A DNA stretch of 62,761 nucleotides, filler included, from Coriobacteriales bacterium (GTDB lineage Bacteria > Actinomycetota > Coriobacteriia > Coriobacteriales > UBA8131), in NCBI GenBank assembly GCA_031263105.1. It is 5 parts of 5 records of this genome, joined end to end, with 100 filler letters (N's around TTAATTAATTAA, not from the genome) between each part and the next. Parts side by side here need not be neighbours in the genome. Positions count along the whole stretch, not along the records: positions 1 to 30,718 come from JAISGJ010000077.1; 4 more parts are not named here. One strand, written 5' to 3'. The notes below the pieces were generated by a model that saw only the letters and a list, made by a program, of their open reading frames with translations, ran no database searches and had not been told where the DNA came from. The stretch's first letter is position 1; each line of letters starts with the position of its first letter. Below, one piece after another: positions 13,979 through 31,781 of the stretch. Position numbers and translations under genes: made by a program.

Positions 13979-14045
13979 GGGCAGGGTCAGCCCCTTGGCC
14001 GGGCTTGCCCTCAGAGGTTGTTGGGGCGCGTCAAGTGTGTTTCGT

Positions 14046-14566: not shown

Positions 14567-14666
14567 TCGCATCTCCTGACCCTGCATGGGAACTCCTCTA
14601 TGATACCACAGCGCTTTTCTGATACGAAACGACCGACCCCTGTCACCGTTCAACTTCCTGTCGCGG

Positions 14667-15058
14667 GCTACCGTTCGCACCCCACTGTCATTCCGAGCTC
14701 CGCCGAGGAATCTTTGGACACGCAGTGTCCAACCGCAGGTCGCAGGGCCCTTCGGCCTGCGGTCGACCGCTGGCGCGGTCGAGGATCCCTCGGCAGGCTC
14801 GGGATGACAGCGGGGCCCGGGATGACAGCGGGGCCCGGGACGGCAGCGGGGCCCGGGATGACAGCGGGGCCCGGGACGGCAGCGGGGGCCGGGGCGGCAG
14901 CGGGGCCCGGGGCGGCAGCGGGGCCCGGGGCGGCAGCGGGGCCCGGGACGGCAGCGGGGCCCGGGACGGCAGCGGGGCCCGGGACGGCAGCGGGGGCCGG
15001 GACGGCAGCGGGGCTCGGAATGACAGAGGGGTATCCGTGGGGGTGTAGGAACTGTAGC
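14667..15058. repeat. Palindromic MITE/REP-like element (family A) with 12 tandem 18-bp units
   Basis: CTGTCATTCCGAGC...GAGGAATC / GATCCCTCGGCAGGCTCGGGATGACAG arms; GGGATGACAGCGGGGCCC-like units at 14801-15016. Confidence 0.85.
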
Positions 15059-15290
15059 GGGCGGCAGGCTACTGACAACATCTGTCCTGTCATACCTGTC
15101 GCTTCGGCAAAGCCTGCCACGGGCACAGCGAAGAGGCCTTGTTCCGCATAGGTTGGCCGAGGGGGAGCGCGAATACCCGTGTTGTCTCGGACGGAGGGTC
15201 CCTTCGCTGCGCCCGTGGCGGGCTCCATGGGTGAACGCGAGGTTCTTTGGCTGCTCCAGCGCTGAGGCCCCGGGACGTGCGATGCATCGT

Positions 15291-15998
15291 TCAGTGCATT
15301 CCCACCTTCACTTCCGCTCCTTGTGCCTCACGCGTCGCACCACTCCTCATGGCGGCACGGATGCGCAAGGCGACATAGCAGGCGAACACGACGCTGTAGA
15401 CGGCTATCGAGAGGCGGGCGTTTGCGGCCCCTTGGAGCGCGGGGACGAGCAGGTAGCCCAGGATATGGAGGTAGACGAGGCCGAAGAACAGGTAGGCCAA
15501 GCGCTGGACGCGCCGCCAGAGGCGGGGATCCATCGCGGAGCGCACCCTCCGAAACGACGTCACGGTCAGCACCGCCAGCACGGCCAGCAGGGCGAGCGAG
15601 AGCGCCAAAGGCACCATGAGGCTCGCCCTGAGCTGGAAGAAGTGTCCCAGAAGGCCCGCGTAGTTGGCTAGGAGCAGGACGAAATGCCCGCACACCAGGA
15701 TGCTTCCCAGTATCGAGAGCTCGCCCCGCACAGGAAGGAGGCGCCCCCCGAGCGCCGAGTCCTTCCTGAGCGTTCCTGCGAACATGACCACGACGAAGAA
15801 CGCGAAGCCGAGCTGGCCCTTTTGCATCAGGTCTTGGAACGGCCTGACAAGCGTGTCAGGGGTCGGCTCCGCGAAGAGCAGGTAGAGCACGACCGCTGCC
15901 GCCGCCCCCGCATAGAAGACGAGGGGCCTTTGCCTGAGCGCACGGGCGCCTGCGAGTGAGACCGCGCCTGCGAGCGCCAAGGCGAGAATCACGTTCAT
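15291..15998 (-). CDS. Ferric reductase-like transmembrane protein (MsrQ-like membrane partner)
   Basis: About 6 TM helices; RGELSILG...GH and LTVTSF...WRRVQRLAYLFFGLVYLH motifs. Confidence 0.8.
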   Translation of the reverse strand: MNVILALALAGAVSLAGARALRQRPLVFYAGAAAAVVLYLLFAEPTPDTLVRPFQDLMQKGQLGFAFFVVVMFAGTLRKDSALGGRLLPVRGELSILGSILVCGHFVLLLANYAGLLGHFFQLRASLMVPLALSLALLAVLAVLTVTSFRRVRSAMDPRLWRRVQRLAYLFFGLVYLHILGYLLVPALQGAANARLSIAVYSVVFACYVALRIRAAMRSGATREAQGAEVKVGMH

Positions 15999-16034
15999 GG
16001 GGCCTCACGTTCCTTTCGGATCCGCCTGCGTCGC

Positions 16035-18320
16035 CTACGCCTTGGCGACCTCGCAGAGGCCTGACGAGAACGGCGGGAAGCCGGTGATGGGGTCGAAGTC
16101 TCGGGTGGTGAGCAGGTTCACGTCCGCCTGGTGCCAGCCGTGGAATATGTCGACCACGCCGGGCATGACCATGTTCGTCACCTCGGCCTTCATCGCTATC
16201 TCGCCCTGCATGTTGAACACGCGCGCGTCGTCCCCGTCCTTCAGGCCGCGCGCCTCGGCGTCCTTGGGGCTCAGGCGCACGACGGGGTCGGGCATGAACT
16301 GGTTGAGCCAGGGCAGGTCGCGCAGCTTGCTGTGCGTGTAGTAGGGCACGCGCGAGCCGGTGTTGAGCACGAGGGGGTACTGCGCATCCTCCGCCGGGCC
16401 TCCAAGGGGGCTGTGGACGGGCTCCTCGTAGATGGGCAGGCCCTCGAATCCGAGGCCCGTGAGCACGGTCGAGACGAGCTCGACCTTGCCGGAGGCGGTG
16501 CCGAAGCCGGGCTGGCCGTCCGGACGCAGCTTGCCGCTCTCGTATTTGCGCTCCTCGGGGGCGGGGCCCGGCACCTCGAAGCCGTCGGGGTTGTTGCGCA
16601 GGTCGTCGAGGGTGACCTCGAGGCCGGTGGTCTTGAGCAGCTCCTCGAGCGCGCCATCGACGCTGCCGCCGAAGCACTCGTCCTCGTAGCCGAGGGCGCA
16701 GCCTATCTCCATGATCACCTGCCAGTCCTCACGTGCCTCGCCCAGAGGCTTGACAGCAGGCTGGCGCAGGAATATCTTGCGTCCGAATATCGACAGGGCG
16801 GCAGTCCGCTCGTAGCACATCGCCGCAGGCAGGACCATGTCCACCAGGTCGTGGGTCCACGGGCGGATGTAGTAGTCGATGGCGACCGAGAACTCGAGGC
16901 TCTTGATGGCCTCCTGGTACAGAGGGGTGTCAGGCCACATCATGGAGTTGATGCCGAGCAGGACGCCGGCGCGTATCTTGCCGTCCTTCACGTACTCGGG
17001 CAGGTTCACGGTCTGCATCATCTTGTAGTACTTCGCCCAGACCGGGAATTCGTCCTTGTCATGGCGTCTGCCTTGGAAGCCCTGCTCCTCGTAGACGCCT
17101 TCGAGCTGGAAGCCCTTGGTCGAGGCGGCGTAGTCGAAGGGCAGGCCGGGGCCGAGCGTCAGGCCGCCGGCGACGTCGAGGCAGCCGAGGAGCGCGGGTA
17201 TCATGAACACCGCACGCTGGAAGTGCCCCACGTTGGTGGTATGGCAGCCGCCCTTGGAGCTGGTGACGAGCGTGCTGGGGGCGTTCGTGCCGATGAGGGT
17301 CGCCGCCTCGACGAGCCTGTCGGCGGGGACCCAGGTTATCTCCTCGACCTTCTCGGGGGTGTACTCGGCGACGTAGGCCGCAAGCTCGTCGAAGCCCACG
17401 GTCCACTCCGCGACGAAGTCCTTGTCGTAGAGGTCCTGTTCGATGAGCTGGTTGATGAAGCCTGCCACGAGCGCGCCGTCCGAGCCGGGACGCAGCTGCA
17501 GGTGGACGTCGGCGACGCCGGAGACCAGCGGGGTGACGCGGGGGTCCACCACGACGAACTTCACGCCACGCTCCTTGGCGGCCATGAAGCCCTTGAAGCG
17601 GTTGGGCTGCGACCAGGCGGGGTTGAGCGACCACACCAGGCAGCTCTTCGTGGCATCGCCGGGGTCCTGTCCCATGCTGTTCTGGCCGAAGACCATCTGA
17701 GCGCACATCCAGCTGGCGGCCGCGCAGACCGAGCTCTCCGTGCCGTAGCTCGACGAGCCGAACAGGGTCGCCAGGCGCTGCATGGCGCCGCGCGGCTCCT
17801 TGGGGTCGCCGCAGAAGAAGAGCACCGCATCCGCCCCGTGCTGCTCCTTTATCCCGCCCAGCTTCTCGGCTATGGTCGCGTAGGCCTCGTCCCAGGAGAT
17901 GGTCTCCCACTCAGGCGAGCCGGTGCCCTTCTCGTTGGTGCGTCTCACAGGGCTCAGCAGCCGCTCGGGGTCGTAGAGCTCCTGAAGGCTCGCGATGCCC
18001 TTGGCGCAGAGAGGGGACGCGGGGTAGGGCGCACTCGACTCGACGCGTACTATCCTCTCCTCCTGAACGTAGCAGTTGATGCCGCATTTGGGCACATGGT
18101 TGCACATGTCGCAGTAGGTGCGACGGATCTCGATGGGGGAGTTCTCGTCGGCGAACGCCTCTGTGGGATGGAAGATGTTGAAGCCGGCGCCGCCGCTGCC
18201 GAGCGTTGTGCCGAGGACGGCCGCTCCGGCGACGAAGCTGCGGCGCGAGAGCCCGCTTCCGTGCTGGACGGCCTCTGCGGCCCTTGCAGCCCCTGTGGTG
18301 TCAGCCTTCATTCGAGCCAC
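16035..18320 (-). CDS. Tat-exported molybdopterin oxidoreductase, catalytic subunit
   Basis: SRRSFV, CDMCNHVPKC...LCAKG, ISWDEA, TESSVC, LRPGSDGAL, C-terminal HGW. Confidence 0.93.
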   Translation of the reverse strand: MARMKADTTGAARAAEAVQHGSGLSRRSFVAGAAVLGTTLGSGGAGFNIFHPTEAFADENSPIEIRRTYCDMCNHVPKCGINCYVQEERIVRVESSAPYPASPLCAKGIASLQELYDPERLLSPVRRTNEKGTGSPEWETISWDEAYATIAEKLGGIKEQHGADAVLFFCGDPKEPRGAMQRLATLFGSSSYGTESSVCAAASWMCAQMVFGQNSMGQDPGDATKSCLVWSLNPAWSQPNRFKGFMAAKERGVKFVVVDPRVTPLVSGVADVHLQLRPGSDGALVAGFINQLIEQDLYDKDFVAEWTVGFDELAAYVAEYTPEKVEEITWVPADRLVEAATLIGTNAPSTLVTSSKGGCHTTNVGHFQRAVFMIPALLGCLDVAGGLTLGPGLPFDYAASTKGFQLEGVYEEQGFQGRRHDKDEFPVWAKYYKMMQTVNLPEYVKDGKIRAGVLLGINSMMWPDTPLYQEAIKSLEFSVAIDYYIRPWTHDLVDMVLPAAMCYERTAALSIFGRKIFLRQPAVKPLGEAREDWQVIMEIGCALGYEDECFGGSVDGALEELLKTTGLEVTLDDLRNNPDGFEVPGPAPEERKYESGKLRPDGQPGFGTASGKVELVSTVLTGLGFEGLPIYEEPVHSPLGGPAEDAQYPLVLNTGSRVPYYTHSKLRDLPWLNQFMPDPVVRLSPKDAEARGLKDGDDARVFNMQGEIAMKAEVTNMVMPGVVDIFHGWHQADVNLLTTRDFDPITGFPPFSSGLCEVAKA

Positions 18321-19131
18321 CTCCGTTTCCTTCGGCCTTCTTGTCCTTGGACCTCTTCACCGCGACGCCCACGCCCACTGCGGCCGCAGCGACGACGACA
18401 GCGCCGCCGCCGATGACGGCAGGGCTTATCCCGGGCGCGGCCGCCGTCTTGGGGGCCTCGTCGGTCTCGGCATCGGTCTCGGCCTCGACCGCCTCGACGG
18501 GCGGGCTGCTCACCATCACCTTGGAGGCCAGCATGTCGGAGGGCATGCCGACGGGCTCGAGGTAATAGAAGCCGGTCGTGCCCACCCGCTTCGCGTTGGC
18601 TGCCTTCTGGGCTATCTCGCTCTCGGGGTCGTCGATGTCCCCGAAGGTGCGTGCGGCGCCCGGGCAGTTGACCACGCAGGCCGGCTGGCGCCCCTCGGCG
18701 CGCAGCTCCTCGCAGAATATGCACTTCTCGGCGACGTCGGCCCGCTGGACGCCGTAGGACTCATAGGGGGCGGGGGTTTCGGCGTCGAACCAGTTCTCCT
18801 TCGTCGTGTTGAGGTGGCGGGCGCCATAGGGGCAGGCGCTCACGCATTGGCCGCAGCAGATGCACTCCTCGTAGTCGACGAGGGTCACCCCCTCCTCGTT
18901 CTGATGGCTCGCTCCCGTCGGGCAGGCGGACGCGCACGGCGGGTCGTCGCACTGCATGCAGGAATGGGGGAGATAGGTGCGCCGTGCGTCGGGGTAGTCG
19001 TCCCACTCGCAGCGGTCCACCGTCACCCACACCACGCCGGGGCGCGTGTTGTTCTGCATCTGGCAGGAGACAACACACCCACAGCAACCGGCGCAGCGTG
19101 CCAGGTCGATGAGCATTGCCTGTCTGGTCAT
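18301..19131 (-). CDS. 4Fe-4S dicluster protein with a C-terminal membrane anchor
   Basis: CAGCCGCVVSC, CMQCDDPPCASACP, CICCGQCVSACP, KCIFC; hydrophobic tail followed by KR. Confidence 0.92.
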   Translation of the reverse strand: MTRQAMLIDLARCAGCCGCVVSCQMQNNTRPGVVWVTVDRCEWDDYPDARRTYLPHSCMQCDDPPCASACPTGASHQNEEGVTLVDYEECICCGQCVSACPYGARHLNTTKENWFDAETPAPYESYGVQRADVAEKCIFCEELRAEGRQPACVVNCPGAARTFGDIDDPESEIAQKAANAKRVGTTGFYYLEPVGMPSDMLASKVMVSSPPVEAVEAETDAETDEAPKTAAAPGISPAVIGGGAVVVAAAAVGVGVAVKRSKDKKAEGNGGGSNEG

Positions 19132-19303
19132 GATCGGTCCTTCCTCTCACGTGTCGGGCGGGCCGCCCTGTGCTCCAGGTGGTTCGCAGCCCACGGTCCT
19201 GCGTTCTTCCACTGTCAAGGAGTATGCGCAAATCCCCCGCCCTTATCCAGAAGCGTCGCTTAAACTTTCAAGGTCGCTTCGGATAGGGTGCCTCGATAGC
19301 GTG

Positions 19304-19327
19304 CGTTGCGTGAAAAACCACGCGACG
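19304..19327. promoter_or_regulatory. Candidate Crp/Fnr-type operator
   Basis: CGTTGCGTG-N6-CACGCGACG imperfect palindrome between the Crp gene and the divergent Mo operon. Confidence 0.4.
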
Positions 19328-19449
19328 GCTATGATTACAGGCAGGCAACGGATATACTATAGTTAGAGAGGCGGCTGAAGGAGGATGCTTGGGGCAGGAC
19401 ACGTGTCCGTCGCCTGCAACGGCGGGCAGACGCCCCGTAGTCCGGGGAG

Positions 19450-20202
19450 ATGCCCCGGACAGGCCCTGTCATCGCTGGAACCGAAGAGGTGGGTACCTTG
19501 CTTTCAGAACAGGATTACACGTCCGTCCTGGTTCCGACCATGCCGTTCCATCGGCTGAAGATCGGCTCCTATATCGACCAGGCGAAGAAGCGCAAGCTCT
19601 TCAAAGGGGAGTACATCACCGCAAAGTCGGACGGCAAGGACGACTACTACTATTACTATGTGGAGAAGGGCCAGCTGCGCTGCTCCTTCATCAAGGCCAA
19701 CGGCGAGCCCGCCACCCTGTTCTACCGCAACGCAGGCAACGCCTTCTCCATCGAATATGCAGGCATCGCGTCGCTGGCCGGCGGGTTCAAGATGCGCTAT
19801 GTCGCGACGAAGGACACCGTCGTCTTCGCCTTCACGCAGCAGCAGCTCTATGACCTCATGCAGCAGGACCCCGAGATATTCTACGAGTTCATACTGGTGT
19901 GCCACATGGCGTTCGGGCAGATGGGCCACCGCATCTCGAATGTCGGCGTGTCCTCGTCCATGCAGCGCATCGTCATCTGGCTCAGGAAGCTCTGCGCGGT
20001 CAACAAGGCCGACGCGCAGGGCGTCCACACCGTCAACGCGGTCATCACCATCCAGCAGCTGGCGGAGCTCCTCCACATACATCCGACGACCTGCAGCAGG
20101 CTGCTCACCACCCTGGAGACCGACGGCGTCATCAGGCGCAGCCGCACCCAGATAACCGTCTTCGACGTGAACCGCCTCATGGACTACGAGTCGCTCGACT
20201 AG
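19450..20202 (+). CDS. Crp/Fnr-family transcriptional regulator
   Basis: cNMP-binding-like barrel (YYVEKGQL) and HTH ITIQQLAELLHIHPTTCSRLL. Confidence 0.9.
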   Translation: MPRTGPVIAGTEEVGTLLSEQDYTSVLVPTMPFHRLKIGSYIDQAKKRKLFKGEYITAKSDGKDDYYYYYVEKGQLRCSFIKANGEPATLFYRNAGNAFSIEYAGIASLAGGFKMRYVATKDTVVFAFTQQQLYDLMQQDPEIFYEFILVCHMAFGQMGHRISNVGVSSSMQRIVIWLRKLCAVNKADAQGVHTVNAVITIQQLAELLHIHPTTCSRLLTTLETDGVIRRSRTQITVFDVNRLMDYESLD

Positions 20203-20365
20203 GGAGGCGCCGATTAATTGCTTGTGCACCAGATGGCGAGTCAATTTGCCCCTGGTCAAGGCGGAGATGGCAGACACTACGGGGCGTAATGTCTGTCATC
20301 TCCAACGCGGAGCAGGGGCAAATTGGCCGTCAGATGGTGCGCAATGAATAAATCGGCGCCTCCCT
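20201..20365. mobile_element. 165-bp MITE-like element (family B), copy 1
   Basis: Perfect 15-bp terminal IR AGGGAGGCGCCGATT / AATCGGCGCCTCCCT; same-length homologue in reverse orientation at 61712-61876. Confidence 0.75.
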
Positions 20366-20376
20366 GGGGCAGCCGT

Positions 20377-21705
20377 CTAAAGCTCCAGGCAGAAGAGGGC
20401 GTAGAGGGGGACTGCCTTGATGCCGCCCGCGAAGCCGAAGTCCTGGGCGGTGACGCGCAGACAGTAAGGCGGACGGAACCTCTTGCGGTAGGTGCCGAGG
20501 CTGACGGAACCCGTGCGGGTGCCCGCCTTCACCTCGACGGGAACCACGGTGCCGTCCGGCCTCTGCAGGACGAACTCGACCTCTGCTTGATTGCCGTAGG
20601 CCCAGTAGCAGGGCGCGAGGCCGTGCGCGACCAGCGCCTGCATGACGTAGTTCTCGGCAAGCATGCCCTCGAAGGCCCCCAATGCCTTCGTGTCGGTCGT
20701 CAGCTCGGACGGGGCGATGCCCAACCGCGAGACGAGGATGCCGCTGTCGAGAAGGTACTCCTTGAAGAAGCCGGGATCCTCGTAGGCGACCAAGGGCGTC
20801 TCCGCAAGGGAGACCCTGTTGCAGCGGTTGAGGAGCGCGGCCTTCTCAAGCCAGAACAGCGCCGTCTCGTATTCGCTGGCACGGGCACCGCTGCGGATGG
20901 CCCTGTATTGGAACTTACGGTTCTCCTTGGTCAGCTGCCGGGGCATGCTGTCCCACACACGCGTGATGCGCATGGTCTCGTCGGGGGTCGCGTACTTGGC
21001 CATGTCACCGACGTAGGCGGCATTGATGGTCTTCTGCTTGGTGAGGACGATCTCCGGCCGTCCGTCGCGCACCCGCGCGTCGACCACCTCGGGCATGCCG
21101 CCACAGACGAGGTACTCCCGCAGCAGGGCGAGGCCTTTGGCGTGGAGAGGAAACGAGCTCTCCGGCACGTCCGGCGCGGCAAGCACCCTCGCGCTGTGCT
21201 CCCTAACGGCATCGGCGAGCGGCTTCTCGCCCAGCGCCCAGAGGAACTCCTCGAAGTCCATGGGGTGCAGGTCGCAGAAGGCGACCTTCCCCGCAGGGAA
21301 CGAGACGTCCTCCCTGTTCAGCGCTATCCCCAGCAGGTTGCCCGTTGCGACAAGGTGGTATGCGGGCTCCTGCTCATAGAAGTACTTCAGCGAGGTCAGC
21401 GCGCGCGGACAGGCCTGTATCTCATCGAAGACGATGAGCGTCTGCCCCCTGTGGATGCTCTGGCCGCAAAACGCCGAAAGCAGCGGCAGGAGCTCGGCAG
21501 GCCTGAGCGTGCGCTCGAAGAAGCCTTTGAGAGCGGGGGTGTCCTCGAAGTTGAAGTAGGCCGTGTTCAGGTAGCTCTCGCGACCGAGTCCCAGTGCCGC
21601 GTAGGTCTTGCCGGTCTGGCGTGCGCCTTGGATGACGAGAGGCATCCGCATGTCGTCCTCCGTGGCCTTCCAAGCATGTAAGGTCTCTTCGATTTTACGT
21701 TTCAT
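20377..21705 (-). CDS. AAA+ ATPase with DUF4143
   Basis: GARQTGKT Walker A, FDEIQ Walker B, CGGMPE, C-terminal EVEF...PVEVKAG. Confidence 0.92.
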   Translation of the reverse strand: MKRKIEETLHAWKATEDDMRMPLVIQGARQTGKTYAALGLGRESYLNTAYFNFEDTPALKGFFERTLRPAELLPLLSAFCGQSIHRGQTLIVFDEIQACPRALTSLKYFYEQEPAYHLVATGNLLGIALNREDVSFPAGKVAFCDLHPMDFEEFLWALGEKPLADAVREHSARVLAAPDVPESSFPLHAKGLALLREYLVCGGMPEVVDARVRDGRPEIVLTKQKTINAAYVGDMAKYATPDETMRITRVWDSMPRQLTKENRKFQYRAIRSGARASEYETALFWLEKAALLNRCNRVSLAETPLVAYEDPGFFKEYLLDSGILVSRLGIAPSELTTDTKALGAFEGMLAENYVMQALVAHGLAPCYWAYGNQAEVEFVLQRPDGTVVPVEVKAGTRTGSVSLGTYRKRFRPPYCLRVTAQDFGFAGGIKAVPLYALFCLEL

Positions 21706-21952
21706 GTCATCACCTCACACAAAAGTATAACAAAAAATGTGATGTGGAAACACTAAAATGTAATCCATAGTAGTCCCGAGTCAAATTCCGCACCCTGTCG
21801 GCGACGGCCTGAACTGTAGCGTCCAGTCAAAACGTACCAAGAGTGTATTGGGCATGCCATCCATGACGACGTGCTCCGTGTCCGAGCAACGCGTAGAGGT
21901 GCTAGAATGGGGGAGAGGTAAAGGCGGACGCATCAGCGGATTGGATTCTCGT

Positions 21953-22285
21953 ATGATCAAGATGCAGATAAAGATGGACGAGGGCAAGATCAGGCGTGGC
22001 GGACGCTACAGCCTTGACAGGATTTACGGCATCTTGGACGACTACCTGGTCAACAACCTGCGCTTCGCCAAGGACGGTGACGGCTTCTACCTCGGTACCG
22101 GCTCGCCGGACGACTTCGGCAACTTCGGTCTGGCGATGGTCACGCTCGGCAAGAAAGGCTGGTTCATGGACAACGTGGACACTTGGCTGTACTTCAACTC
22201 CGAGGACAGCACGGATCCGGACGACTACGTAATCGAGGACTTCAAGGAGTTCTGCAAGGAGCGCTATCAGGCGAGCGCAGCCTGA
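21953..22285 (+). CDS. Hypothetical protein, probable partner (antitoxin) of VapD
   Basis: 110-aa ORF ending 1 nt before the VapD gene. Confidence 0.65.
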   Translation: MIKMQIKMDEGKIRRGGRYSLDRIYGILDDYLVNNLRFAKDGDGFYLGTGSPDDFGNFGLAMVTLGKKGWFMDNVDTWLYFNSEDSTDPDDYVIEDFKEFCKERYQASAA

Positions 22286-22286
22286 G

Positions 22287-22661
22287 ATGGCCGCCCGGCG
22301 CACCTACAAGATGATAAACTTCGACCTCAGCACCAAGCGGTTGGTCGAGGAGTTCGGCGAGAGAAGCTACCGCAAGGGCTACGCGCTGATACTGCGATTC
22401 TTCACTGCCAACAGCTTTGAGCACCACCAGTACTCAGGATATCTGTCGACGTCCGCGATGAGCTATGCCGAGGTTTACAACCTCGTTCTCGACACCATGG
22501 CCTCCAAGCTGCCGTGGCTGGCGAACTGCGTGGAGAAGTTTGATGCCACTAATGTCACATCGCAGTCCGATATGCTCAAAGCGATAAGGTCGAACGCAGA
22601 AAAGCCCAACTCAAGCGTCGTTCCCGTTCTGCTGGAAGGCGACGAAGAGGTCACCATATAG
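22287..22661 (+). CDS. VapD-family (Cas2-like) endoribonuclease
   Basis: INFDL...Y..I..FF....FEHHQYSGYLS...PWL..CVEKFDAT. Confidence 0.8.
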   Translation: MAARRTYKMINFDLSTKRLVEEFGERSYRKGYALILRFFTANSFEHHQYSGYLSTSAMSYAEVYNLVLDTMASKLPWLANCVEKFDATNVTSQSDMLKAIRSNAEKPNSSVVPVLLEGDEEVTI

Positions 22662-22925
22662 CCTTGGACAATGAGGGACGAAGGCAGGGTTCCGTCAGCC
22701 CTGCGCACCCCAGCCTTTGGGGAGGGCGTAGGCGTGGCAGCCGCCCTGGTTGCAGGCAAGGACGGGGGCGGCCTCCACGCGGTGGCAGGATGCGCAGGCG
22801 GTGAGGCGCATTCGTTGAAGGCGACGTTACTGTACAGACCCTAATGTGACTCCGGCCCGACCGCCCGAAGGCGGCTGCCGTTTAACAATTTCGAGCGATT
22901 CGCCCAGCCATTGCATCGCTCACAT

Positions 22926-22936
22926 TGTGGTAGAAT
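22926..22936 (+). promoter_or_regulatory. Extended -10 promoter
   Basis: TGTGG-TAGAAT immediately before the structured leader. Confidence 0.5.
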
Positions 22937-22939
22937 TCG

Positions 22940-23245
22940 AGTCGCCAAATCTGCATGCGGATTCCTCTTTGGGGGGACTTCAGTATATCCAGCTTGAAGG
23001 GCATCGGCCCGACAAGGATATATTGAATCCCTTGTAGGTTTGGCGACTGTGGGTTGATGCCCTTCACCCTGATGGAGGCAACTCGGTCGCTGAGTTGGAA
23101 TGCAGGCGAGAGGCACCTTCCCCACAGCCATACGGGTGCGCAGACGCACGGATTTGCGTCGATGCGTTGGGCTGACAATAGGGGATTGGAGCGTTTCGAT
23201 GGGAGCTTTTGAAAGCCATTGCCTGTGTCACAAAGGGCAATTGAG
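22940..23245 (+). ncRNA. Putative structured RNA or 5' leader of unknown family
   Basis: Long helices 22940-22955/23033-23048, 22979-22990/23016-23027, 22995-23010/23051-23066 and 23079-23086/23090-23097; every non-Watson-Crick pair in them is G-U in the + sense. Confidence 0.6.
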
Positions 23246-23295
23246 CAGCACATACACATACTCCTGAAGACTGATCCATAGAGCATAGCATCAAA

Positions 23296-24393
23296 ATGGA
23301 TGTCGTCATAAAACCAACGTATCGCTGCAACCTCGACTGCCGCTATTGCTGCATTCATGTTACGGACAGGGATGACCTGTCATCAAATGAGGCAAAACGG
23401 ATACTTGAGGCAGCCGCCGCAAGAAGCCCAGAGGGCGTCATGCAGGCAAGGTGGCATGGCGGGGAACCCTTGTGTATGGGATACGAGTGGTTCGAAGAGG
23501 TTTTTTGGCATCAAAAAAGCCTTCCCGTCCAAGTGAACAATGTCGTGTTCACAAACTTGCTTCTGCTCGGAGACGACTTCCTGCAACTGTTCAAGGACAA
23601 CAACGTGATTATATTCACAAGCCTTGATGCGGTGGATTCCCTCTTGGATGAGGAGCGGGGAGGTCGTTGCGAGGATGTCATGGGGCGCTTGGACGCCTTG
23701 GAGTGCGCCGGATATTCAGATGTCACCGTCAAGACCACCGTGACATCTGCAAACCTCGCCGGTCTCGTGGATACCTATGACTACCTGAAGGGCAAGCCGT
23801 TCGAGTGGAACTTCGCGCCCGTGTTCCCCGCAGGCAGGGGCAAAGAGCACTGTTTGGAGGTCTTGCCCTCGGCCGCTGAGTTCGCGTCGTTGTCTGGGGC
23901 CATACTCGACGACTGGGTGCAGACGGGCAAACCACGAATCTATCTCTTCAGGAAAGTCATTGAAGAGTTGTTGAGGACGAGGGCTTCAGGCGAAATCGAA
24001 CGTCCAATGTTCAATGTCGATGCCCACGGTGACGTGTATCGGTGTATCCAGTTCCAAGGAAACAAGGACTACAAGGTCGCTGCCTTTGGGGGAGTAGGCA
24101 CGATTGATGCCTTTGAAGCATGTACGTGCGAATGGAGCACGTTTCATTTCGCTTCCTGCGATTTCTGCGATTTTACTTGGATATGCAAGTTCAACCACTG
24201 CTCGTATCTTGGTGACTCCTTAGGTTCGCTTGGAAACGACTTTGCGGAGCGTTATTGCGCATTGATGAGGCCGTTGTTATCAAGGACTCAGCAGGCGCTA
24301 ACGGAGGAGATCGGGTTCGTCTTACATGATGCTTCCCGCGCTCCTGTTTCTACCGAGAAGAGGGGCTGCTTGCAACGGGAAGGAGGTGATTGA
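23296..24393 (+). CDS. Radical SAM/SPASM-domain protein (putative peptide maturase 1)
   Basis: KPTYRCNLDCRYC, WHGGEPL, FTNL, TSLD; SPASM-like GDVYRC...CDFC...IC...C...YC. Confidence 0.9.
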   Translation: MDVVIKPTYRCNLDCRYCCIHVTDRDDLSSNEAKRILEAAAARSPEGVMQARWHGGEPLCMGYEWFEEVFWHQKSLPVQVNNVVFTNLLLLGDDFLQLFKDNNVIIFTSLDAVDSLLDEERGGRCEDVMGRLDALECAGYSDVTVKTTVTSANLAGLVDTYDYLKGKPFEWNFAPVFPAGRGKEHCLEVLPSAAEFASLSGAILDDWVQTGKPRIYLFRKVIEELLRTRASGEIERPMFNVDAHGDVYRCIQFQGNKDYKVAAFGGVGTIDAFEACTCEWSTFHFASCDFCDFTWICKFNHCSYLGDSLGSLGNDFAERYCALMRPLLSRTQQALTEEIGFVLHDASRAPVSTEKRGCLQREGGD

Positions 24394-24394
24394 G

Positions 24395-24595
24395 ATGGAG
24401 ATGGTAAAAGACATGACACTGGAGCAGGCCGGAAGGATATCCTCGCCTGCCATCAGGGGGCTTGTAACCGAGAACATTTTGCTTGGACAGAGAATGGAGG
24501 GCGGTGAAAGCCTGACAATTCGCGTCGGGTACGACAAGTTTACCCACTCGAAGTCGTCGTGCCAGTGCGTGTGTGTTGTCGGAGGTATGGGGTAG
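24395..24595 (+). CDS. Putative RiPP precursor peptide (66 aa)
   Basis: Strong SD GGAGGTGA; MEMVKDMTLEQAGRISSPAIRGLVTENILLGQRMEGGESLTIRVGYDKFTHSKSSCQCVCVVGGMG; fills the gap between two rSAM genes. Confidence 0.75.
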   Translation: MEMVKDMTLEQAGRISSPAIRGLVTENILLGQRMEGGESLTIRVGYDKFTHSKSSCQCVCVVGGMG

Positions 24596-24613
24596 TCGGG
24601 GGGAGAAGGGCGG

Positions 24614-25768
24614 TTGAACTCTGCGGGCCGTAAGGGCGGACAGCAAATGGATTCTTCGGAAGCGACAATGATCAACAGGACTGTCAACATCTTGTTAATC
24701 TGCACCTCAGGATGCAATTTGGCCTGCACGTACTGCTATTGCGATAAAGGCCAAACACAGTCTATGGGGATTGGAGCGTTCAAAGAAGCCTTCAACAAGC
24801 TTGATGCCTATTTTGATGACACCACAGAGTTCCACATAGTCTTTCATGGAGGAGAGCCGCTGATTCTGGGAGCGCAGTTCTATCGTGACGCACTTGCGTT
24901 TCTTGGCGATCAGCGGCGCCCTCTCCACACAAGCATCCAGACCAACCTCACGTTAATGAACGATGAGTTTATCTCTCTGTTCAAGGCTAACGGCTGCACC
25001 GTCAGCACCAGTGTTGATGGATCGAGGTCGATGCATGATGCCAACAGAAGGTATCCGGACGGCAAAGGTTCATATGAGGATGTCGTGAGGAAGGTTGCTC
25101 TGCTGGATGAGTGCGAGGTTCCCTTTGGGGGCGTCATCGTAACCCTGAATGAGAGCAACACGGTCAACGCACGGGAGCTCTACGATTCCCTTCGACGGTT
25201 CGAGGCGCATGCAATCGGGTTCAGTATAGTCTATAGAGCAGACGGCAAAGACGACGTCGTTCTCGACCCGGCGCATCTGGGGGCCTTCCTCATTGAGATT
25301 TTTGACCTGTGGTCAGTTGATGAGGAACCGCTCAGGCTCTCGTTTTTTGAGTCGATAGTCAGAAGCGCCTTGGGTATAAACCCCTACCCCGAGTGCACGT
25401 TCTGCAATCGGTGTGCGGATGGCTTCATCGCTATCGATGCGTCAGGTGAGGTGTATCCCTGCGGCGACTTCGTTGGCAAGCGTTCGTACCTGTACGGTAA
25501 CATCCTCACCCAGGATTTCAAAGAGCTTTGGGAAGGCCCTGCCAGAAACGCCCTTGCGCACAGACAGGGAGCAGAAGGAACCGCTGCCACGTGCCAGGGC
25601 TGTGCGTATGACGAGATATGTCGCTCAGGCTGCCCCGCCAAGTCGCCGAACGGCTATGCCGACAAAGATGTCTACTGCGAGGCATACAAAATGCTGTTCG
25701 CCCACCTCAAACGCAGCATCGAACACTTCGGTGATAGAGGGACAGAGACGAAGCTCAAACCTCCCTGA
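24614..25768 (+). CDS. Radical SAM/SPASM-domain protein (putative peptide maturase 2); start may be ATG 24647
   Basis: CNLACTYC, FHGGEPL, QTNLT, SVDG; full SPASM CTFCNRC...GEVYPC...CQGC...ICRSGCP...YC. Confidence 0.92.
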   Translation: MNSAGRKGGQQMDSSEATMINRTVNILLICTSGCNLACTYCYCDKGQTQSMGIGAFKEAFNKLDAYFDDTTEFHIVFHGGEPLILGAQFYRDALAFLGDQRRPLHTSIQTNLTLMNDEFISLFKANGCTVSTSVDGSRSMHDANRRYPDGKGSYEDVVRKVALLDECEVPFGGVIVTLNESNTVNARELYDSLRRFEAHAIGFSIVYRADGKDDVVLDPAHLGAFLIEIFDLWSVDEEPLRLSFFESIVRSALGINPYPECTFCNRCADGFIAIDASGEVYPCGDFVGKRSYLYGNILTQDFKELWEGPARNALAHRQGAEGTAATCQGCAYDEICRSGCPAKSPNGYADKDVYCEAYKMLFAHLKRSIEHFGDRGTETKLKPP

Positions 25769-25925
25769 TCGCTAAGCCACTGTGGTGCTCTGGGTCATTA
25801 TGTCGGACATGCTCAAATATGGAAGGCTGTCTATCGAACTGGTTGACAGGGTGCTTGGCGGGGGACGTCTCCCTCGTCACCCCCAAATACAACGTCATGG
25901 AACAGTAAGAGTAGGGAGAGATATT

Positions 25926-26111
25926 ATGACTGACATCTTAAATGAAGAGACTCTTCACAAATTAATGAAAGCAGCAGAGGGGGGAGACTATCGGGCGGCT
26001 TTTGAATTGGCAGAAGCATATGGCGAAGGCAAAGGTCTTCCAAAGAACATGGAGCGAGCCAATTACTGGCTTAACAAATCAGTTGAGTTAAAGGCAAGAG
26101 CAGAGAGGTAA
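25926..26111 (+). CDS. Single Sel1-like repeat micro-protein
   Basis: AAEGGDYRAAFELAEAYGEGKGLPKNMERANYWLNKS; SD GGGAG upstream. Confidence 0.7.
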   Translation: MTDILNEETLHKLMKAAEGGDYRAAFELAEAYGEGKGLPKNMERANYWLNKSVELKARAER

Positions 26112-26347
26112 GCTCACAATGCTTGTTTGCATTGATTGGGTGCGTAGCAGGCATACTGTCCTCCCATCTTGCTAGTCATGCAAGTAGTGGAGTGGAAGAA
26201 CGTATGTTTGACAATCGGTACTGGGCGCAAGCGCTCTATGTATTTTAACGTGGGCTTCGCCCACAACCCATAGAGTGCTGAGGTCATCATGCTGAATCCT
26301 GTGTTGTCATAACAATGAATTGTGCAGCATAATGGACTGCTTAATGA

Positions 26348-26539
26348 ATGGGGGTAGAGATGTCAGTAGAAGTAAAAGCATATCCTATGGATAAAAGTGG
26401 GTGCATAGAACTGGAATGTCGACACTGTGAAAAAGCATATTACGTTGATGCAATGGAATTTTCACAAAATGTGAAGTATGGGGTGGTTTCAGTTTGCCCC
26501 TATTGTAAAGAGTGCACTACTTTTGAGATAGATCGTTGA
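26348..26539 (+). CDS. Small zinc-ribbon protein
   Basis: CRHC...CPYC pair in about 60 aa. Confidence 0.5.
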   Translation: MGVEMSVEVKAYPMDKSGCIELECRHCEKAYYVDAMEFSQNVKYGVVSVCPYCKECTTFEIDR

Positions 26540-26604
26540 GATACCCTACACGATTTTTGGTTAGGGCAAAGCAGGAGTCAGGAATAATGCGAGGAGGTCT
26601 CACA

Positions 26605-26745
26605 ATGGCGTATGAACCGGAGAAGTTTGCGAACAAGAAGCGCGAGGACGAGGAAATAAGAAAGGCCCAACAAAGGGCCAAGGAGGATGCCGAGAAGAAG
26701 CGCCGAATAGCCGAGGCGGCGCTGAAAAACACCATGAGGAGATAA
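26605..26745 (+). CDS. Small basic helical protein (46 aa)
   Basis: SD GAGGAGGT; MAYEPEKFANKKREDEEIRKAQQRAKEDAEKKRR... Confidence 0.5.
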   Translation: MAYEPEKFANKKREDEEIRKAQQRAKEDAEKKRRIAEAALKNTMRR

Positions 26746-26884
26746 AGCCAAGGCAAGGGACACGCGAGCACTCGACAAGGGGATGACAGGGACTTTTCTC
26801 CTGACGGCTTCCATTTTTTTGCGACGAGCTGGGTGGGACATTGGCTCTCTCGTCCTATTCGTAGCAGCGTTTTCAGGGAGGTAA

Positions 26885-27391
26885 ATTTATTGGTTTCGGC
26901 AAGCCGCAGGGCAAGGAAATGCCGAGGCGCAGGATTTCCTACGACGACTTGAGGGAGAAACTATGGTACCTAACGATAAAAAGGAAAGGCTTCAAGAAAG
27001 AATAGCGGAGATACAGGCGAAAGCGGCAAAAGCAAATGAAATCTATGCAGTGGAAATCGATCGTGCGCTTGCACCTCTAGCTGAGAATGATTTTCTGATT
27101 AAATCAATCGCTGGAATTATACTTGAGAATCTTAAGGTCGAACCCATTGCCAAATTACGTGGAGATGATCTGGAACTGAAGCTTTCAGCTGTTTTCTTGT
27201 TTGGGGATGGAGTAGTCATTGTGGGGGCACAATTGTCGGACACAATCAAACTCTTCGTTGCGGAGGATGGCATGGGGGATTCCGATTGGATACATGAAGA
27301 GTATTGCGAGCAAGTTGATAACTGGCTCTCCTCAAATATAGGGATAGGCCATATAAGAGGAGATAAATACTATTTGCTCGGAGGGAGATAG
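26885..27391 (+). pseudogene. C-terminal fragment of a Sel1-repeat protein (ORF track start 26963)
   Basis: In-frame upstream IYWFRQAAGQGNAEAQDFLRRLEGET matches the last Sel1 repeat of the 27562 gene; preceded by TAA. Confidence 0.55.
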
Positions 27392-27561
27392 GATATGAGA
27401 TGTGCCGATTGTTTCGAGTGGGTTTCTCTCGGACTGCAGCAATAATAGGTTTTGTATAGGAGCAAAGAATACAACTTCACGCTGCCGGTCTGACGTTAAA
27501 GCAGGTTGGGCATGAACCGGGCATCCGTGAATTAGCTACCAAGAGTGGTTTCACAAAAGCC

Positions 27562-29421
27562 TTGCCAGTATACAATGAAAATTGCCATAGGAAGAAGAAG
27601 CGTATGTCAAAGAATATGGTTAACGAATTGTGCCAGGACTTACTTCGCAATGGGTGGGAGCATGCTTCTGACGACTCGATAATGCGGATGTATTCTGCAG
27701 ATGAGTATGAGAATCTGCGCGATAATGGTGCAGCCGATGTCCAGAGAGGAATACTGATTCAACTCGTTGTTAACGAAGACGGCGAGTATGAGGCCGATGT
27801 CAAAGAGAATAGAACTACAATAATTCCCATGAAATGTGCATTTCCAATTGGCAAAGGAACATGCACTGCCTACGAGACTCTGGGAAAAATATTCCTTGAC
27901 GCCCTTGACCCAGAAGACGGAAGTCAAGGCTATCGCCTTTTTCACCAACACATCCATTTTGACGAGGCTAACAATTTTATTGAATTTATTCGTGTAATAA
28001 TTTTGCCGGTTGACATCGAGTACATCAACAGGATTTTGCCGGTTGACATCGAGTACATCAACAGGAGTGCGGAGATAACCTTTTTGGTGGCGACCGGATT
28101 TGAATTGTTCCTGAATACGGTCATAGATTCAGATGCAGAAAATCTTAGACTTGACGGGGAAGAAGTGAGTAATCCCATTGGGTGGTTCGTTGCCTATTTG
28201 AATAACTTGCGCAGTCTTTACCCCGAATATGTGTGGAAGCGCAGCGAAGAGAATGGCGACGATGAGGATGGCAGTATTGAAAAAATCCAGAAGGATGCTG
28301 AGCAGGGGGATATTGAGGCACAATGGAAATTAGGCTGTTTCCACGACACCGGAACTCACGTGTCGCAGGACTTTGAAAAGGCTGTGTATTGGTACAAGAA
28401 GGCAGCCGAACAGGGCCATGCGGAGGCGGCATACAATTTGGCGATATCGTATAAAGACGGGGAAGGCATCCCGCAGGATTTCGAGAAGGCTGTGTATTGG
28501 TATAAGGAATCCGCAAAACTAGGGGATGCTGATGCGCAAAACTTTTTAGGGGGGTTGTATCATAGCGGCAATGGAGTACCTAAAGATCCCGAAAAGGCCG
28601 TATCTTTGCTTGAAAAGTCAGCTGAACAAGGTCATCTTGAAGCCGCGTATCATTTGGGTGTTTGGTACGTCAGCGGAGACGAGGTGCCGCAGGATTTCGA
28701 GAAAGCGGAACACTGGTGGCATAAGGCAGCAGATGGGGGTCTGGATCTGGCGCAATACAACTTGGGGTTGATGAGCGAAAGGGGCGATGGTGTGCCGCAA
28801 AGTTTTGAGAGCGCTGCGCACTGGTACCAAGAGGCTGCCGAGCAAGGTTACGTTAATGCGCAAATCAAATTGGGAACATTCTACGCAGACGGGCATGGTG
28901 TACCACAGAGCACAGGAAAAGCGGCTCATTGGTTTCAGCAAGCTGCGGAACAAGGGAGCGTCGAGGCACAGGATTCTTTGAAACGACTTCAGGGAGATAC
29001 CTGCGACAAGAACATCGTAGATGAATATTACGAGTATTCTGTATCCGAGGATATGCGCCAGGATAGGTTGGATGCTGTCGATGCGTTGCATCAATTTGAG
29101 GCAACTGGTGCTGTTATTGAAGTTGATTATAACAAGGCTCCGATTACTCCAAGTGACAAAATCGCATGGGCAATCCATTCACTCAGAAAGCAATCTCTTG
29201 ATACCGCCTTGGGATGGCTTGAACAGGCATTCAAATTCTATTTCAGAATAGGTGGAGCAGAATCGTCTTACGTCAAAGATGGTGGGCCGGAATCGTTCCG
29301 GGATATAGATGTTAAAGTTTGGGGTTGCGCTGCGTTTGTTGCCAATTATGAAAGTTATCACGACAGCAAAAACGACAGACCGCTCGCCTCTCTTTGTTCC
29401 AAAATGGGAGCACAGGAGTGA
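27562..29421 (+). CDS. Sel1-repeat protein with uncharacterised N- and C-terminal domains (start probably ATG 27604)
   Basis: About six repeats of A..LG..Y..G.GV.QD.EKA..WY.KAAEQG; low GC. Confidence 0.9.
   Translation: MPVYNENCHRKKKRMSKNMVNELCQDLLRNGWEHASDDSIMRMYSADEYENLRDNGAADVQRGILIQLVVNEDGEYEADVKENRTTIIPMKCAFPIGKGTCTAYETLGKIFLDALDPEDGSQGYRLFHQHIHFDEANNFIEFIRVIILPVDIEYINRILPVDIEYINRSAEITFLVATGFELFLNTVIDSDAENLRLDGEEVSNPIGWFVAYLNNLRSLYPEYVWKRSEENGDDEDGSIEKIQKDAEQGDIEAQWKLGCFHDTGTHVSQDFEKAVYWYKKAAEQGHAEAAYNLAISYKDGEGIPQDFEKAVYWYKESAKLGDADAQNFLGGLYHSGNGVPKDPEKAVSLLEKSAEQGHLEAAYHLGVWYVSGDEVPQDFEKAEHWWHKAADGGLDLAQYNLGLMSERGDGVPQSFESAAHWYQEAAEQGYVNAQIKLGTFYADGHGVPQSTGKAAHWFQQAAEQGSVEAQDSLKRLQGDTCDKNIVDEYYEYSVSEDMRQDRLDAVDALHQFEATGAVIEVDYNKAPITPSDKIAWAIHSLRKQSLDTALGWLEQAFKFYFRIGGAESSYVKDGGPESFRDIDVKVWGCAAFVANYESYHDSKNDRPLASLCSKMGAQE
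28000..28065 (+). repeat. Exact 33-bp tandem duplication, in frame (ILPVDIEYINR x2)
   Basis: ATTTTGCCGGTTGACATCGAGTACATCAACAGG twice. Confidence 0.9.
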
Positions 29422-30718
29422 TTTGCCCTGCTTGCGGTCGCGAGGTCGCCGACGGAGCAGCGCTTTGCCCAGGATGCGGGGCGTCGCTGCGGAAGGATGC
29501 CGAACCCGGCGCACCGCGCAGGCGCGACGGGGAGGGCCTGGCGCCCTGCCCCGTCTGCGGCGACCTGGGCGTCCCCGGTGCGGCCTGCGAGGTATGCTCC
29601 CAAGGCGAGTACGGGGCGCCCGCCCAACCGGCGGCGCCCCCGAGCGACGGCAACGCCCATGTGCCCAGGCGCCTGGCGGCCGACTACGAGTTCGTGCGCC
29701 ATCTGGGCGAGGGCGCCCAGGCCCGCGTGAGCCTGCTGCGCGACAGGGGCGGCGGCGGCCAGGTGGTCCTGAAGAGGTACCACCGCCTGGAGGCCGCGCT
29801 GGACGCCGCGGCCGCGGCCAAGCTGCGGGGGGCCGGGCTTTCCGAGGACGAGTCCGCAGAGATGGGCAGGCACGTGCTGCGGGTGCTGGACCACAACGGC
29901 TCCTACGGGGACAACTGGGAGCTGCAGGAGTACTGCGAGCGGGGCACCCTGGGCGACCTCCTTGCGGCGGCGCCGGGCGGGCGCCTGGCCCTTGAGCGCC
30001 TGAAGGACGTCATCGGGGAGCTGGGCCAGGCCCTCGCCTTCATCCACTCCCTCGATATCATCCACAGGGACCTGAAGCCCTCGAACGTCCTCGTGCGCAC
30101 GGCCGAGCCGCTGGACCTCGTGCTCGCGGACTTCGGCACCGCCAAGGAGCAGCAGCTCTCGCACGGCCGGACCTCCAACGTGCAGGGCACCTACGCCTAC
30201 CTGCCGCCCGAGGCATATTACGGGGCGACGGGCAGGGCGCTCGACTGGTGGGCGCTCGGCATGATAGCCTTCGAGGTCTGTACGGGGCGCCACATCCTCA
30301 GCAGGGGCGACGGCAGGCTCCCGAGCGACATGGAGATAATGCACGCCGTCGGCGAGGGCTCCTACAGGGCGCGGCTGGAGGAGATCGACGACGAGCGCGT
30401 CCGCAGCCTCGTCGAGGGGCTCCTGCTCAGGGACCCCGAGAGCCGCTGGGGCGGTGCGCAGGTCCTGAGCTGGCTCGACGGCCACGACCCCCCGGTCGTC
30501 CGCGACGCGGCGCCCGAGCAGAGGGGCTTCGCAACGAACTGGGCGTTCTTCGTGGAGGGGGTCGCGGAGCCCGTCGCCACGCCGGAGGACCTGAACCGCC
30601 TGCTCAAAGGGCACTGGGAGCATGCCGACGCCCTGTTCGTGCAGATGCCCGACGAGTTCGCGGCATGGCTGGAGAGCGACGGGGCCTACGCCGAGATCGC
30701 CAAGGCCGCCCGGAGCCG
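29418..30718 (+). CDS. Ser/Thr protein kinase with N-terminal zinc ribbons, truncated by the contig end
   Basis: CPACG/CPGCG/CPVCG/CEVC; LGEGAQARV, HRDLKPSN, DFG, YLPPE, DWWALG; GTGA overlap with the Sel1 gene. Confidence 0.88.
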
Positions 30719-30818
30719 NNNNNNNNNNNNNNNNNNNNNNNNNNNNNNNNNNNNNNNNNNNNTTAATTAATTAANNNNNNNNNNNNNNNNNNNNNNNNNN
30801 NNNNNNNNNNNNNNNNNN
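30719..30818. other. Artificial contig linker
   Basis: N44-TTAATTAATTAA-N44. Confidence 0.98.
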
Positions 30819-31082
30819 GGGGGGGCGGTTGGGGGTGGGGCGGGCGCCCCCCCGTTTGGCTTTCGTGCACGGGGTTGGGGGGGGGGGCCGCCCCCCCAAC
30901 CCCCCCGGGGGTTGGCGCCCACCCCCCCCCCCCCCCCCTGTCAAGGTGTCATCGCAAAATACCGAGGATTTTTTTGCGCCTTGTAAAATTTTTGGAATGC
31001 CCTAGAGGATGGGAGAGGCCGGTTGCAGGCCACACCCCACTGCCCTCCCTGTCTCGCCCTCATGGGGCGAAGGGTTCAAATT

Positions 31083-31115
31083 GTCATACGATATTGGTAT
31101 ACTGTATCGTATGAC
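31083..31115. promoter_or_regulatory. Palindromic operator of the TA operon
   Basis: GTCATACGATA-N11-TATCGTATGAC perfect IR enclosing TATACT, directly before SD GAGGAGGT. Confidence 0.7.
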
Positions 31116-31126
31116 GAGGAGGTCGG

Positions 31127-31405
31127 ATGAAGGTAAGGATTTTGCCGCACGCCCTCACACATGGGCTTAGTGTCGAAGAGATTACCTATGCTTGGCAAAG
31201 CCCCGTCCGTTGTCGGCAACAACAAAGCAAGGACGAGCCGCCGCGCTGGATAGCGATAGGGGCGTTGCCGAACGGACAGATGGCAGAAATGGTGGCATTC
31301 GAGGACATATCGGGCGCATGGTGTGTCTTTCATGCAAACACGCCGCCCACAGCGAAGTTCGTAATCGAGCTCGGCTTACGAGGAGGAAGACATGGACGTC
31401 ATTAG
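31127..31405 (+). CDS. BrnT/RelE-like toxin
   Basis: HALTHGLS.EEI.YAW...WIAIG...EMV...VFHA pattern. Confidence 0.7.
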   Translation: MKVRILPHALTHGLSVEEITYAWQSPVRCRQQQSKDEPPRWIAIGALPNGQMAEMVAFEDISGAWCVFHANTPPTAKFVIELGLRGGRHGRH

Positions 31406-31673: not shown

Positions 31674-31781
31674 CAGGGAACGCATCCCTTGTCAGTCTTT
31701 TAAGTCATGACAGGGGGACGCGCACCTTGACACACCGGATGTGACATACGTCTCCCCGACACACGCGTCCCCCCGACACAC

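Follow-up and report, generated by a model that had tools for sequence, protein, structure and literature searches.

A conserved structured element, probably a leader or small RNA, precedes a radical SAM RiPP-like operon in a Coriobacteriales bacterium

Among described systems, riboswitches and structured 5' leaders come closest to the element considered here, which likewise follows a promoter-like site and precedes an operon. A conserved core, arranged as a compact junction of several helices, is likewise common to both, as is a hairpin downstream of it (P4) whose 3' strand has an alternative partner in the 3' strand of the closing helix (P1). Unlike known riboswitches, however, the element has no Rfam match and no known ligand, displays neither a U-tract nor visible sequestration of a start codon, and is built from helices (16 and 17 bp) much longer than those typical of aptamers. 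H-type or loop–tail pseudoknots offer a second comparison, in that the loop of a hairpin is complementary to nucleotides lying immediately 3' of the stem around it; yet 17 bp would here have to form in a 25-nt loop with 4-nt linkers, making partial or mutually exclusive pairing likely.

Two further classes resemble the element in outline. MITEs and small palindromic repeats likewise consist of a short unit bounded by terminal inverted repeats (here 109 bp and 16 bp, respectively), and extra contigs in the metagenome carry the element, but the element lacks a target-site duplication and another copy in the window, its homology to other loci is colinear over ~400 nt, and its mismatches are strand-asymmetric. 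Retron msr-msd noncoding RNAs, in turn, also place long inverted repeats around an internal long hairpin; in contrast to retrons, the gene after the element encodes a radical SAM (rSAM) enzyme. A Pfam scan of 15 neighbouring proteins (16035-34625) found no reverse transcriptase domain, and we dismissed a retron ncRNA.

The window, i.e., the whole 62,761-nt stretch of Coriobacteriales DNA that was analysed, probably contains, as far as sequence can tell, an undescribed RNA of about 155 nt, either a leader acting in cis or a small RNA. Searching the entire window against Rfam 15 at gathering thresholds returned 0 matches; relaxing the search to E up to 10 produced only 4 and 3 chance-level matches (13-15 bits vs thresholds of 46-108). 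Riboswitches, T-box, 6S, RNase P, tmRNA, ribozymes and large ncRNAs all stayed below their gathering thresholds, so that the earlier failure to assign the element to a known family stands, and ARAGORN detected neither tRNA nor tmRNA. RNA-level control of RiPP clusters is scarcely documented, and a full-text literature search returned no title or abstract in which radical-SAM RiPP clusters are placed under the control of a riboswitch or other structured RNA. Insofar as it has no curated family match and no relevant literature at the level of titles and abstracts, the element stands as new.

Genomic setting and coding potential

The element occupies part of the 634 nt that separate a VapD-family gene (22287-22661, + strand; NCBIfam NF041506, E 1.1e-25, below cut-off) from a radical SAM peptide maturase-like gene (23296-24393, + strand; Pfam PF04055, with NCBIfam RiPP rSAM/SPASM hits below cut-off). 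The latter is the first gene after the element, bearing out the position upstream of a RiPP-like cluster given in the first-pass annotation, and its start at 23296 is supported by similar N-termini in orthologues. It is followed by a 66-aa ORF with a Cys-rich C-terminus (24395-24595, + strand) and by a radical SAM/SPASM maturase-like gene (24614-25768, + strand; Pfam PF04055 and PF13186, NCBIfam hits below cut-off). Placed between two rSAM genes and preceded by a good ribosome-binding site, the small ORF has no family match; its position and composition suggest it to be the likely RiPP precursor. Sel1-repeat proteins are encoded in the same region. Across 23000-29000, the GC content drops from about 0.60-0.68 to 0.44-0.54, and the RiPP-like genes therefore occupy a compositionally distinct island. 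The stretch certainly contiguous with the element comprises 1-30718 only, in agreement with the 30718-nt contig on which the window's own proteins are recorded; the joints between parts, each a pair of 44-N blocks spaced 12 bases apart, fall at 30719-30818, 36863-36962, 44732-44831 and 50078-50177, and genes beyond 30718 are not necessarily neighbours.

The initial description of the element as non-coding was supported. None of the five ORFs crossing the region matched an NCBIfam family, and when 1.84 billion representatives were searched exhaustively with HMMER, the pseudo-ORFs had a single match (P0001, described below). No single frame is conserved: homology to P0001 and to a second protein, P0003, switches from frames -2/-3 to -1 at 22966-22979, and a protein-coding reading was rejected.

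Helices, strand asymmetry and predicted fold

At 22928-22936 on the + strand, a predicted extended -10-like element (TGn + TAGAAT) precedes the structured region, as had been claimed. A two-hexamer promoter scan returned 0 sites owing to the absence of a good -35. Transcription would start near 22942-22944.

The helices proposed in the first-pass annotation were recovered at the same positions on the + strand. P1 (22940-22955/23033-23048), which encloses the remaining domain, comprises 16 bp (14 Watson-Crick, 2 G-U), and P2 (22979-22990/23016-23027) comprises 12 bp (11 Watson-Crick, 1 G-U). The P2 loop (22995-23010) is complementary to 23051-23066 over 16 bp (14 Watson-Crick, 2 G-U), and this loop-tail helix can be extended to 17 bp (22995-23011/23050-23066), as a pseudoknot or alternative helix. 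The hairpin P4 (23079-23097) has 8 bp, one of them G-U, a 3-nt loop and no U-tract, and is part of the minimum free energy (MFE) structure. All six non-canonical pairs in these four main helices are G-U on the + strand, the number reported before. A symmetric search allowing both mismatch types counted, for the three long helices, 5 G-T against 0 A-C mismatches, or 6 vs 0 with P4 included.

We compared these values with 2000 dinucleotide-preserving shuffles of 22926-23295. When Watson-Crick and G-U pairs are allowed, the + strand of this region forms helices of 17, 16, 13 and 12 bp, while the best helix on the - strand reaches 11 bp. A longest helix of at least 16 bp occurred in 19/2000 shuffles, a second helix of at least 16 bp in 0/2000, and a third of at least 12 bp in 17/2000. 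Folding of the whole region yielded an MFE of -143 kcal/mol for the + strand (z -3.46, 0/100 shuffles equally good) vs -119.1 kcal/mol for the - strand (z -2.15, 3/100). The helices are real and beyond chance, and their strand asymmetry is as expected of a + strand RNA.

The mismatch count and the 11-bp maximum on the - strand also speak against a DNA-level element, be it a regulator-bound inverted-repeat cluster, a single-strand DNA structure or a MITE-like mobile remnant, although the same G-T asymmetry would be compatible with a single-stranded DNA hairpin. Features that such an element could explain are an inverted repeat of 11 bp without mismatch, counting Watson-Crick pairs only (22995-23005/23056-23066), the 109-bp unit with 16-bp inverted repeats at its ends (22940-22955/23033-23048), and the position at the edge of the lower-GC island beside the VapD gene. 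With the distribution of copies taken into account (see below), we consider a DNA-level origin quite unlikely.

For a transcript starting at 22943, the nested MFE structure on the + strand is a three-way junction followed by P4. Inside P1, which closes this junction, lie a short helix (22959-22962/23028-23031), P1a, a small and variable hairpin (22963-22977), and P2 with its apical helix P3 (22999-23002/23007-23010). Mean pair probabilities in the full leader were 0.99 for P1, 0.93 for P2, 1.00 for P3 and 0.57 for P4. As isolated duplexes, P1 (-25.2 kcal/mol) and P2 (-13.4 kcal/mol) are both surpassed by the loop-tail helix (-29.5 kcal/mol), the strongest of the three. In nested folding, the loop-tail helix had a pair probability of 0, and forcing it cost about 7 kcal/mol. 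Given A-form geometry, 17 bp in a 25-nt loop with 4-nt linkers should be sterically implausible while P1 and P2 are intact, leaving a partial pseudoknot at most or an alternative state that requires a factor.

A further helix of 13 bp (23037-23049/23084-23096) would join the 3' strand of P1 to the 3' strand of P4 and thereby compete with both. By analogy, it has the layout of a riboswitch anti-terminator. Six of its 13 pairs are G-U, its pair probability in nested folding was likewise 0, and forcing it cost about 10 kcal/mol.

Relatives and the conserved core

To recover relatives, the two antisense reading frames that are open across the element served as queries against a protein collection. 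The first led to P0001 (166 aa, recorded on a 1914-nt contig) and the second to P0003 (189 aa, recorded on a 7248-nt contig). According to tblastn, P0001 aligns to 23224-22979 in frame -2 and then to 22967-22848 in frame -1, and P0003 to 23286-22966 in frame -3 and then to about 22964-22905 in frame -1. Homology that persists over such frame changes is therefore at the nucleotide level and does not reflect a conserved protein. It is colinear over ~400 nt, including the promoter region.

A search with the rSAM protein examined 4090 candidates, of which 11 were listed as relatives (E up to 1e-10). The closest, P0005 (87% identity), is recorded on a 1914-nt contig; its cluster mate P0015, 84% identical to the rSAM protein of the window, is on a 7248-nt contig; the next relatives follow at 59% and then 47-48% identity. 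P0001 and P0005 thus appear to share one contig, and P0003 and P0015 another, which is very likely, if unproven, because recorded sizes (1914 and 7248 nt) and source are equal. Both placeable copies adjoin the rSAM orthologue and are oriented alike, with homology extending well past the inverted repeats, and look like orthologous leader-plus-gene loci rather than a dispersed repeat. The rSAM search against genome contigs returned only L001 (64% over 27 residues) and that against metagenome contigs only L002 (35% over 49 residues), neither of them a usable relative; the contigs encoding P0005 and P0015 were not among these results. MurA, present in 21/21 genomes around that of L001, is only 45-52% identical to the MurA of the window, and the phylum of L001 therefore offers no route to relatives.

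We also compared the metagenome contigs of three runs with 22300-24700 at 80% likeness. The source assembly graph breaks within the element, with contigs ending at 23008 and starting at 22989. One contig of run X1, the source metagenome (record 7, 4663 nt), starts at 22989, matches up to 23090 with 8 differences and then diverges; its depth is 21.3, vs 20.9-21.3 for the contigs of the window. Two fragments from run X2 cover 22979-23066 with 3 and 4 differences. Contig ends running on as 'unlike' on both sides proved colinear with the window by eye. None of the 11 listed rSAM relatives is on a 4663-nt contig, and the core may thus also stand before other genes or before a paralogous cluster, be it of this genome or of a co-abundant one. 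The known distribution, which limits the claims made here, is narrow: three near-orthologous loci plus metagenome fragments.

These findings return us to the DNA-level alternative. A dispersed repeat could account for the core-bearing extra contigs in X1 and X2, two runs of the same study, and for the break of the source assembly graph inside the element. Against this, the inverted repeats come without a target-site duplication or other direct repeat flanking 22940 and 23048, the 62.8-kb window contains no second copy, DNA similarity searches of plasmids and phages returned no match, viral contigs gave 0 matches to two exact/degenerate core patterns, and the two copies that could be placed are orthologous loci in colinear arrangement.

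Divergence was then quantified from forced substitutions, that is, the minimal nucleotide changes required by amino-acid differences between the translated pseudo-ORFs in gapless codon alignment. Synonymous changes are invisible to this measure, which registers ~76% of possible single changes, alike in the core and the rest; indels may have misplaced some forced changes in the variable parts. A conserved core of ~135 nt emerged at 22944-23078 (+ strand), with forced substitutions at 2/124 covered nt in P0001 (1.6%) and at 7/134 in P0003 (5.2%), four of the latter within the variable 22966-22978. Upstream, at 22848-22943, the counts rose to 33/96 and 8/39 nt, and downstream, at 23079-23286, to 36/146 and 46/208, respectively, amounting to 20-34% in the flanks overall (core vs rest, Fisher, p = 5.5e-12 for P0001 and 8.6e-6 for P0003). 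The rSAM coding sequence scored 4.6% and 6.3%. As seen through translations, then, the core is at least as constrained as rSAM non-synonymous sites, while the DNA on either side has drifted. The -10 hexamer (22931-22936) had zero forced substitutions in both homologues, and a G>A change at 22930 in P0001 retains TGn. As in riboswitch aptamers, the core is conserved in homologues, here two of them read through translations.

A chance or relic palindrome without function, its conservation owed to recent ancestry or gene conversion, would be very unlikely on these grounds. As such an account would have it, the known relatives are all close ones (rSAM 84-87% identical), but the same copies diverge by 20-34% beside the core, so recent ancestry fails to explain values of 1.6-5.2%, and two 16-bp helices arose in 0/2000 shuffles.

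Conservation ends abruptly past P4, and the spacer from there to the rSAM start codon (23098-23295, + strand) carries 22-25% forced substitutions. Where the first-pass annotation had seen a 'large' RNA over 370 nt, only about 22944-23078 and the hairpin at 23079-23097 act as a conserved unit, shrinking that RNA to its first 40%. Such a boundary would suit a stand-alone small RNA of ~155 nt, starting near 22942, ending at P4 and acting in trans or binding a protein; the operon would then use its own promoter within the poorly conserved 23100-23295. In keeping with this, the P4 stem is retained by a two-sided change in one lineage, and the 4663-nt contig of the source metagenome starts in the core apparently without a listed rSAM homologue, hinting at other genes. 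Terminators without U-tracts have been described in high-GC Gram-positives, and P4 could be one of them. Yet scans detected no + strand terminator-like site and no promoter in 23100-23295, both placeable copies have the rSAM orthologue as their neighbour, oriented alike, and no RNA run contains the locus; we give a stand-alone RNA a low, if appreciable, probability.

Loops and junctions were conserved equally with the stems (2 forced changes in 124 nt). This is at odds with a passive 5' stabiliser, in which the P1/P2 stem-loops would shield the operon mRNA from 5'-dependent RNases without sensing or switching, given that protection requires a stem and not its sequence. That P1 would begin a few nt from the start site and that the P1/P2/P3 fold is the overwhelming ground state would both agree with simple shielding, but the 17-bp complementarity between P2 loop and tail would go unexplained, and we deem this role decidedly improbable.

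Closer inspection of individual changes showed most of them to leave P1 and P2 paired. In P1, a C>T change at 22943 creates a U-G pair in both homologues (the partner is visible and unchanged in P0003), and G>A at 22953, at metagenome contig ends, converts G-U to A-U. In P2, A>G at 22982 in P0003 turns A-U into G-U, again with the partner visible and unchanged, and T>C at 23023 in P0001 and an X2 contig turns G-U into G-C. Across both helices, 3/4 changed pairs in P0001 and P0003 still pair through G-U/Watson-Crick interchange. The sole exception is 22941-23047, the next-to-outermost pair of P1, which is broken in both homologues and fits a transcript start at about 22942. Record 7 of X1 forms U-G in P2 through A>G at 23022 and probably an A-C mismatch through T>C at 23019. 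The P1a region carries indels that change the reading frame in both pseudo-ORFs, as well as 2 mismatches in P0003.

The loop-tail pair 23006-23055 changes on both sides in P0003, from G-U to U-G; P0001 has G at 23055, its position 23006 being invisible. In record 7 of X1, T>C at 23054 yields G-C, and T>A at 23055 probably yields a mismatch. Within P4, all four changed pairs remain paired in P0003, including a two-sided change of 23082-23094 from C-G to U-A that recurs at an X2 contig end, while in P0001 one pair is kept, one definitely broken, one undecidable owing to an invisible partner and one apparently broken. The 13-bp helix between the 3' strands of P1 and P4 retains 6/7 changed pairs. 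Hairpins had further been proposed at about 23119-23185 (nested) and 23218-23241; these do appear in the MFE structure, but comparative support is lacking, as only 6/17 (P0001) and 3/18 (P0003) of the predicted pairs touched by changes in 23100-23295 still pair. Changes in P1/P2, the loop-tail helix and P4 are thus compatible with the helices, several being G-U/Watson-Crick interchanges as expected for RNA; they are too few for a claim of covariation, coming from two close orthologues through translations, and are mostly transitions, which often preserve pairing by chance.

Possible output of the leader and further features of the locus

The suggestion of a 'novel cis-regulator or standalone ncRNA' held in that the element is non-coding, lacks an Rfam match, is strand-asymmetric and is constrained in its 5' part; its size and the hairpins within 23100-23295 were not supported. 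With somewhat less than even confidence, we favour a riboswitch- or attenuator-like leader that acts in cis on the rSAM RiPP operon and in which a switch would govern continuation past P4. A + strand transcript would begin at the extended -10 promoter near 22942 and run into the operon. Its ~135-nt 5' domain would form the three-way junction, with P1a and P2/P3 enclosed by P1, and hairpin P4 would come next. An effector, either a small molecule or a protein, might stabilise the P1/P2 fold or its rival pairings, namely that of the P2 loop with 23050-23066 and that of the P1 3' strand (23037-23049) with the P4 3' strand (23084-23096). The choice of pairing would set P4 formation and, in turn, transcription or mRNA survival into the operon. 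Transcription, start site, switch, effector and output are all parts that we infer for this leader.

Several results argue for such a leader. Its helices go beyond chance expectation and belong to the + strand only, which also folds better (z -3.46 vs -2.15). Conservation at the nucleotide level persists over frame shifts, and the copies apparently reside on contigs with rSAM orthologues. The core (1.6%/5.2%) stands out from flanks of 20-34%, with the -10 hexamer unchanged; three of the four changed P1/P2 pairs are kept, with two-sided changes at 23006/23055 and 23082/23094; and a 13-bp alternative helix exists in which 6/7 changed pairs are kept.

Other results weigh against it. The changes are too few for statistically meaningful covariation, mostly transitions and from two close orthologues, with about a quarter of all changes hidden. 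Sequencing runs containing the stretch comprised one DNA run, from a termite-gut metagenome that is its likely source, and no RNA run. A terminator scan of 22400-23500 found no + strand site, the sole terminator-like site lying on the - strand (23327-23315). An intrinsic terminator or classical attenuator, i.e., a GC-rich hairpin with a U run, was rejected, as P4 has no U-tract. Between P4 and the start codon lie some 200 nt of poor conservation, and the start region has no convincing pairing partner; nor was a Shine-Dalgarno-like purine run seen in 23270-23296 before the rSAM start at 23296, unlike at the ORF starting at 24395. The competing helices are 7-10 kcal/mol worse, with a probability of 0, P4 is at least partly disrupted in P0001, and 23006-23055 is probably mismatched in one metagenome copy. 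The GU-rich 13-bp helix, finally, is of a length common in shuffles, 299/2000 of which had a longest helix of at least 13 bp.

A more specific version of the leader, which we think unlikely, would make the core the sensing domain of a new riboswitch-like class through which termite-gut bacteria control their radical-SAM RiPP operons. In this version, the RNA would adopt either the P1/P2 fold or the 17-bp loop-tail helix depending on a pathway-linked effector (e.g. a cofactor state, an intermediate or the mature peptide), and transcription past P4 would be gated accordingly. If this were true, the copy in the source metagenome that apparently does not precede an rSAM homologue would point to a small regulon. 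A conserved folded leader before a RiPP operon would provide a handle for activating a silent cluster, as well as a candidate new sensing RNA.

The vicinity of the element has features of its own. Between the VapD-family gene and the element, 22693-22790 is GC-rich and contains nested inverted repeats (22732-22746/22766-22780 and 22700-22710/22788-22798). It matches another contig of the source metagenome (736 nt) with 6 differences and unlike flanks, the summed depth rises here to up to 86 vs about 21 elsewhere, and the segment has the appearance of a shared terminator or of a palindromic repeat in dispersed copies. Overlapping it on the - strand is an ORF of 38 aa that includes four Cys (22695-22811). 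Upstream, a 145-aa ORF without a known family (from 21848) ends at 22285, two bases before the VapD-family gene starts at 22287, and the two may constitute a toxin-antitoxin-like pair; relatives of VapD in the same metagenome differ at third codon positions. Farther away, the gene content brings gut Coriobacteriia to mind: 1-20000 and 31000-36700 encode several LuxR-type (GerE) regulators, FAD_binding_2 flavoproteins and molybdopterin oxidoreductases, and Ser/Thr kinases and a LytR_cpsA_psr protein are found elsewhere in the window.
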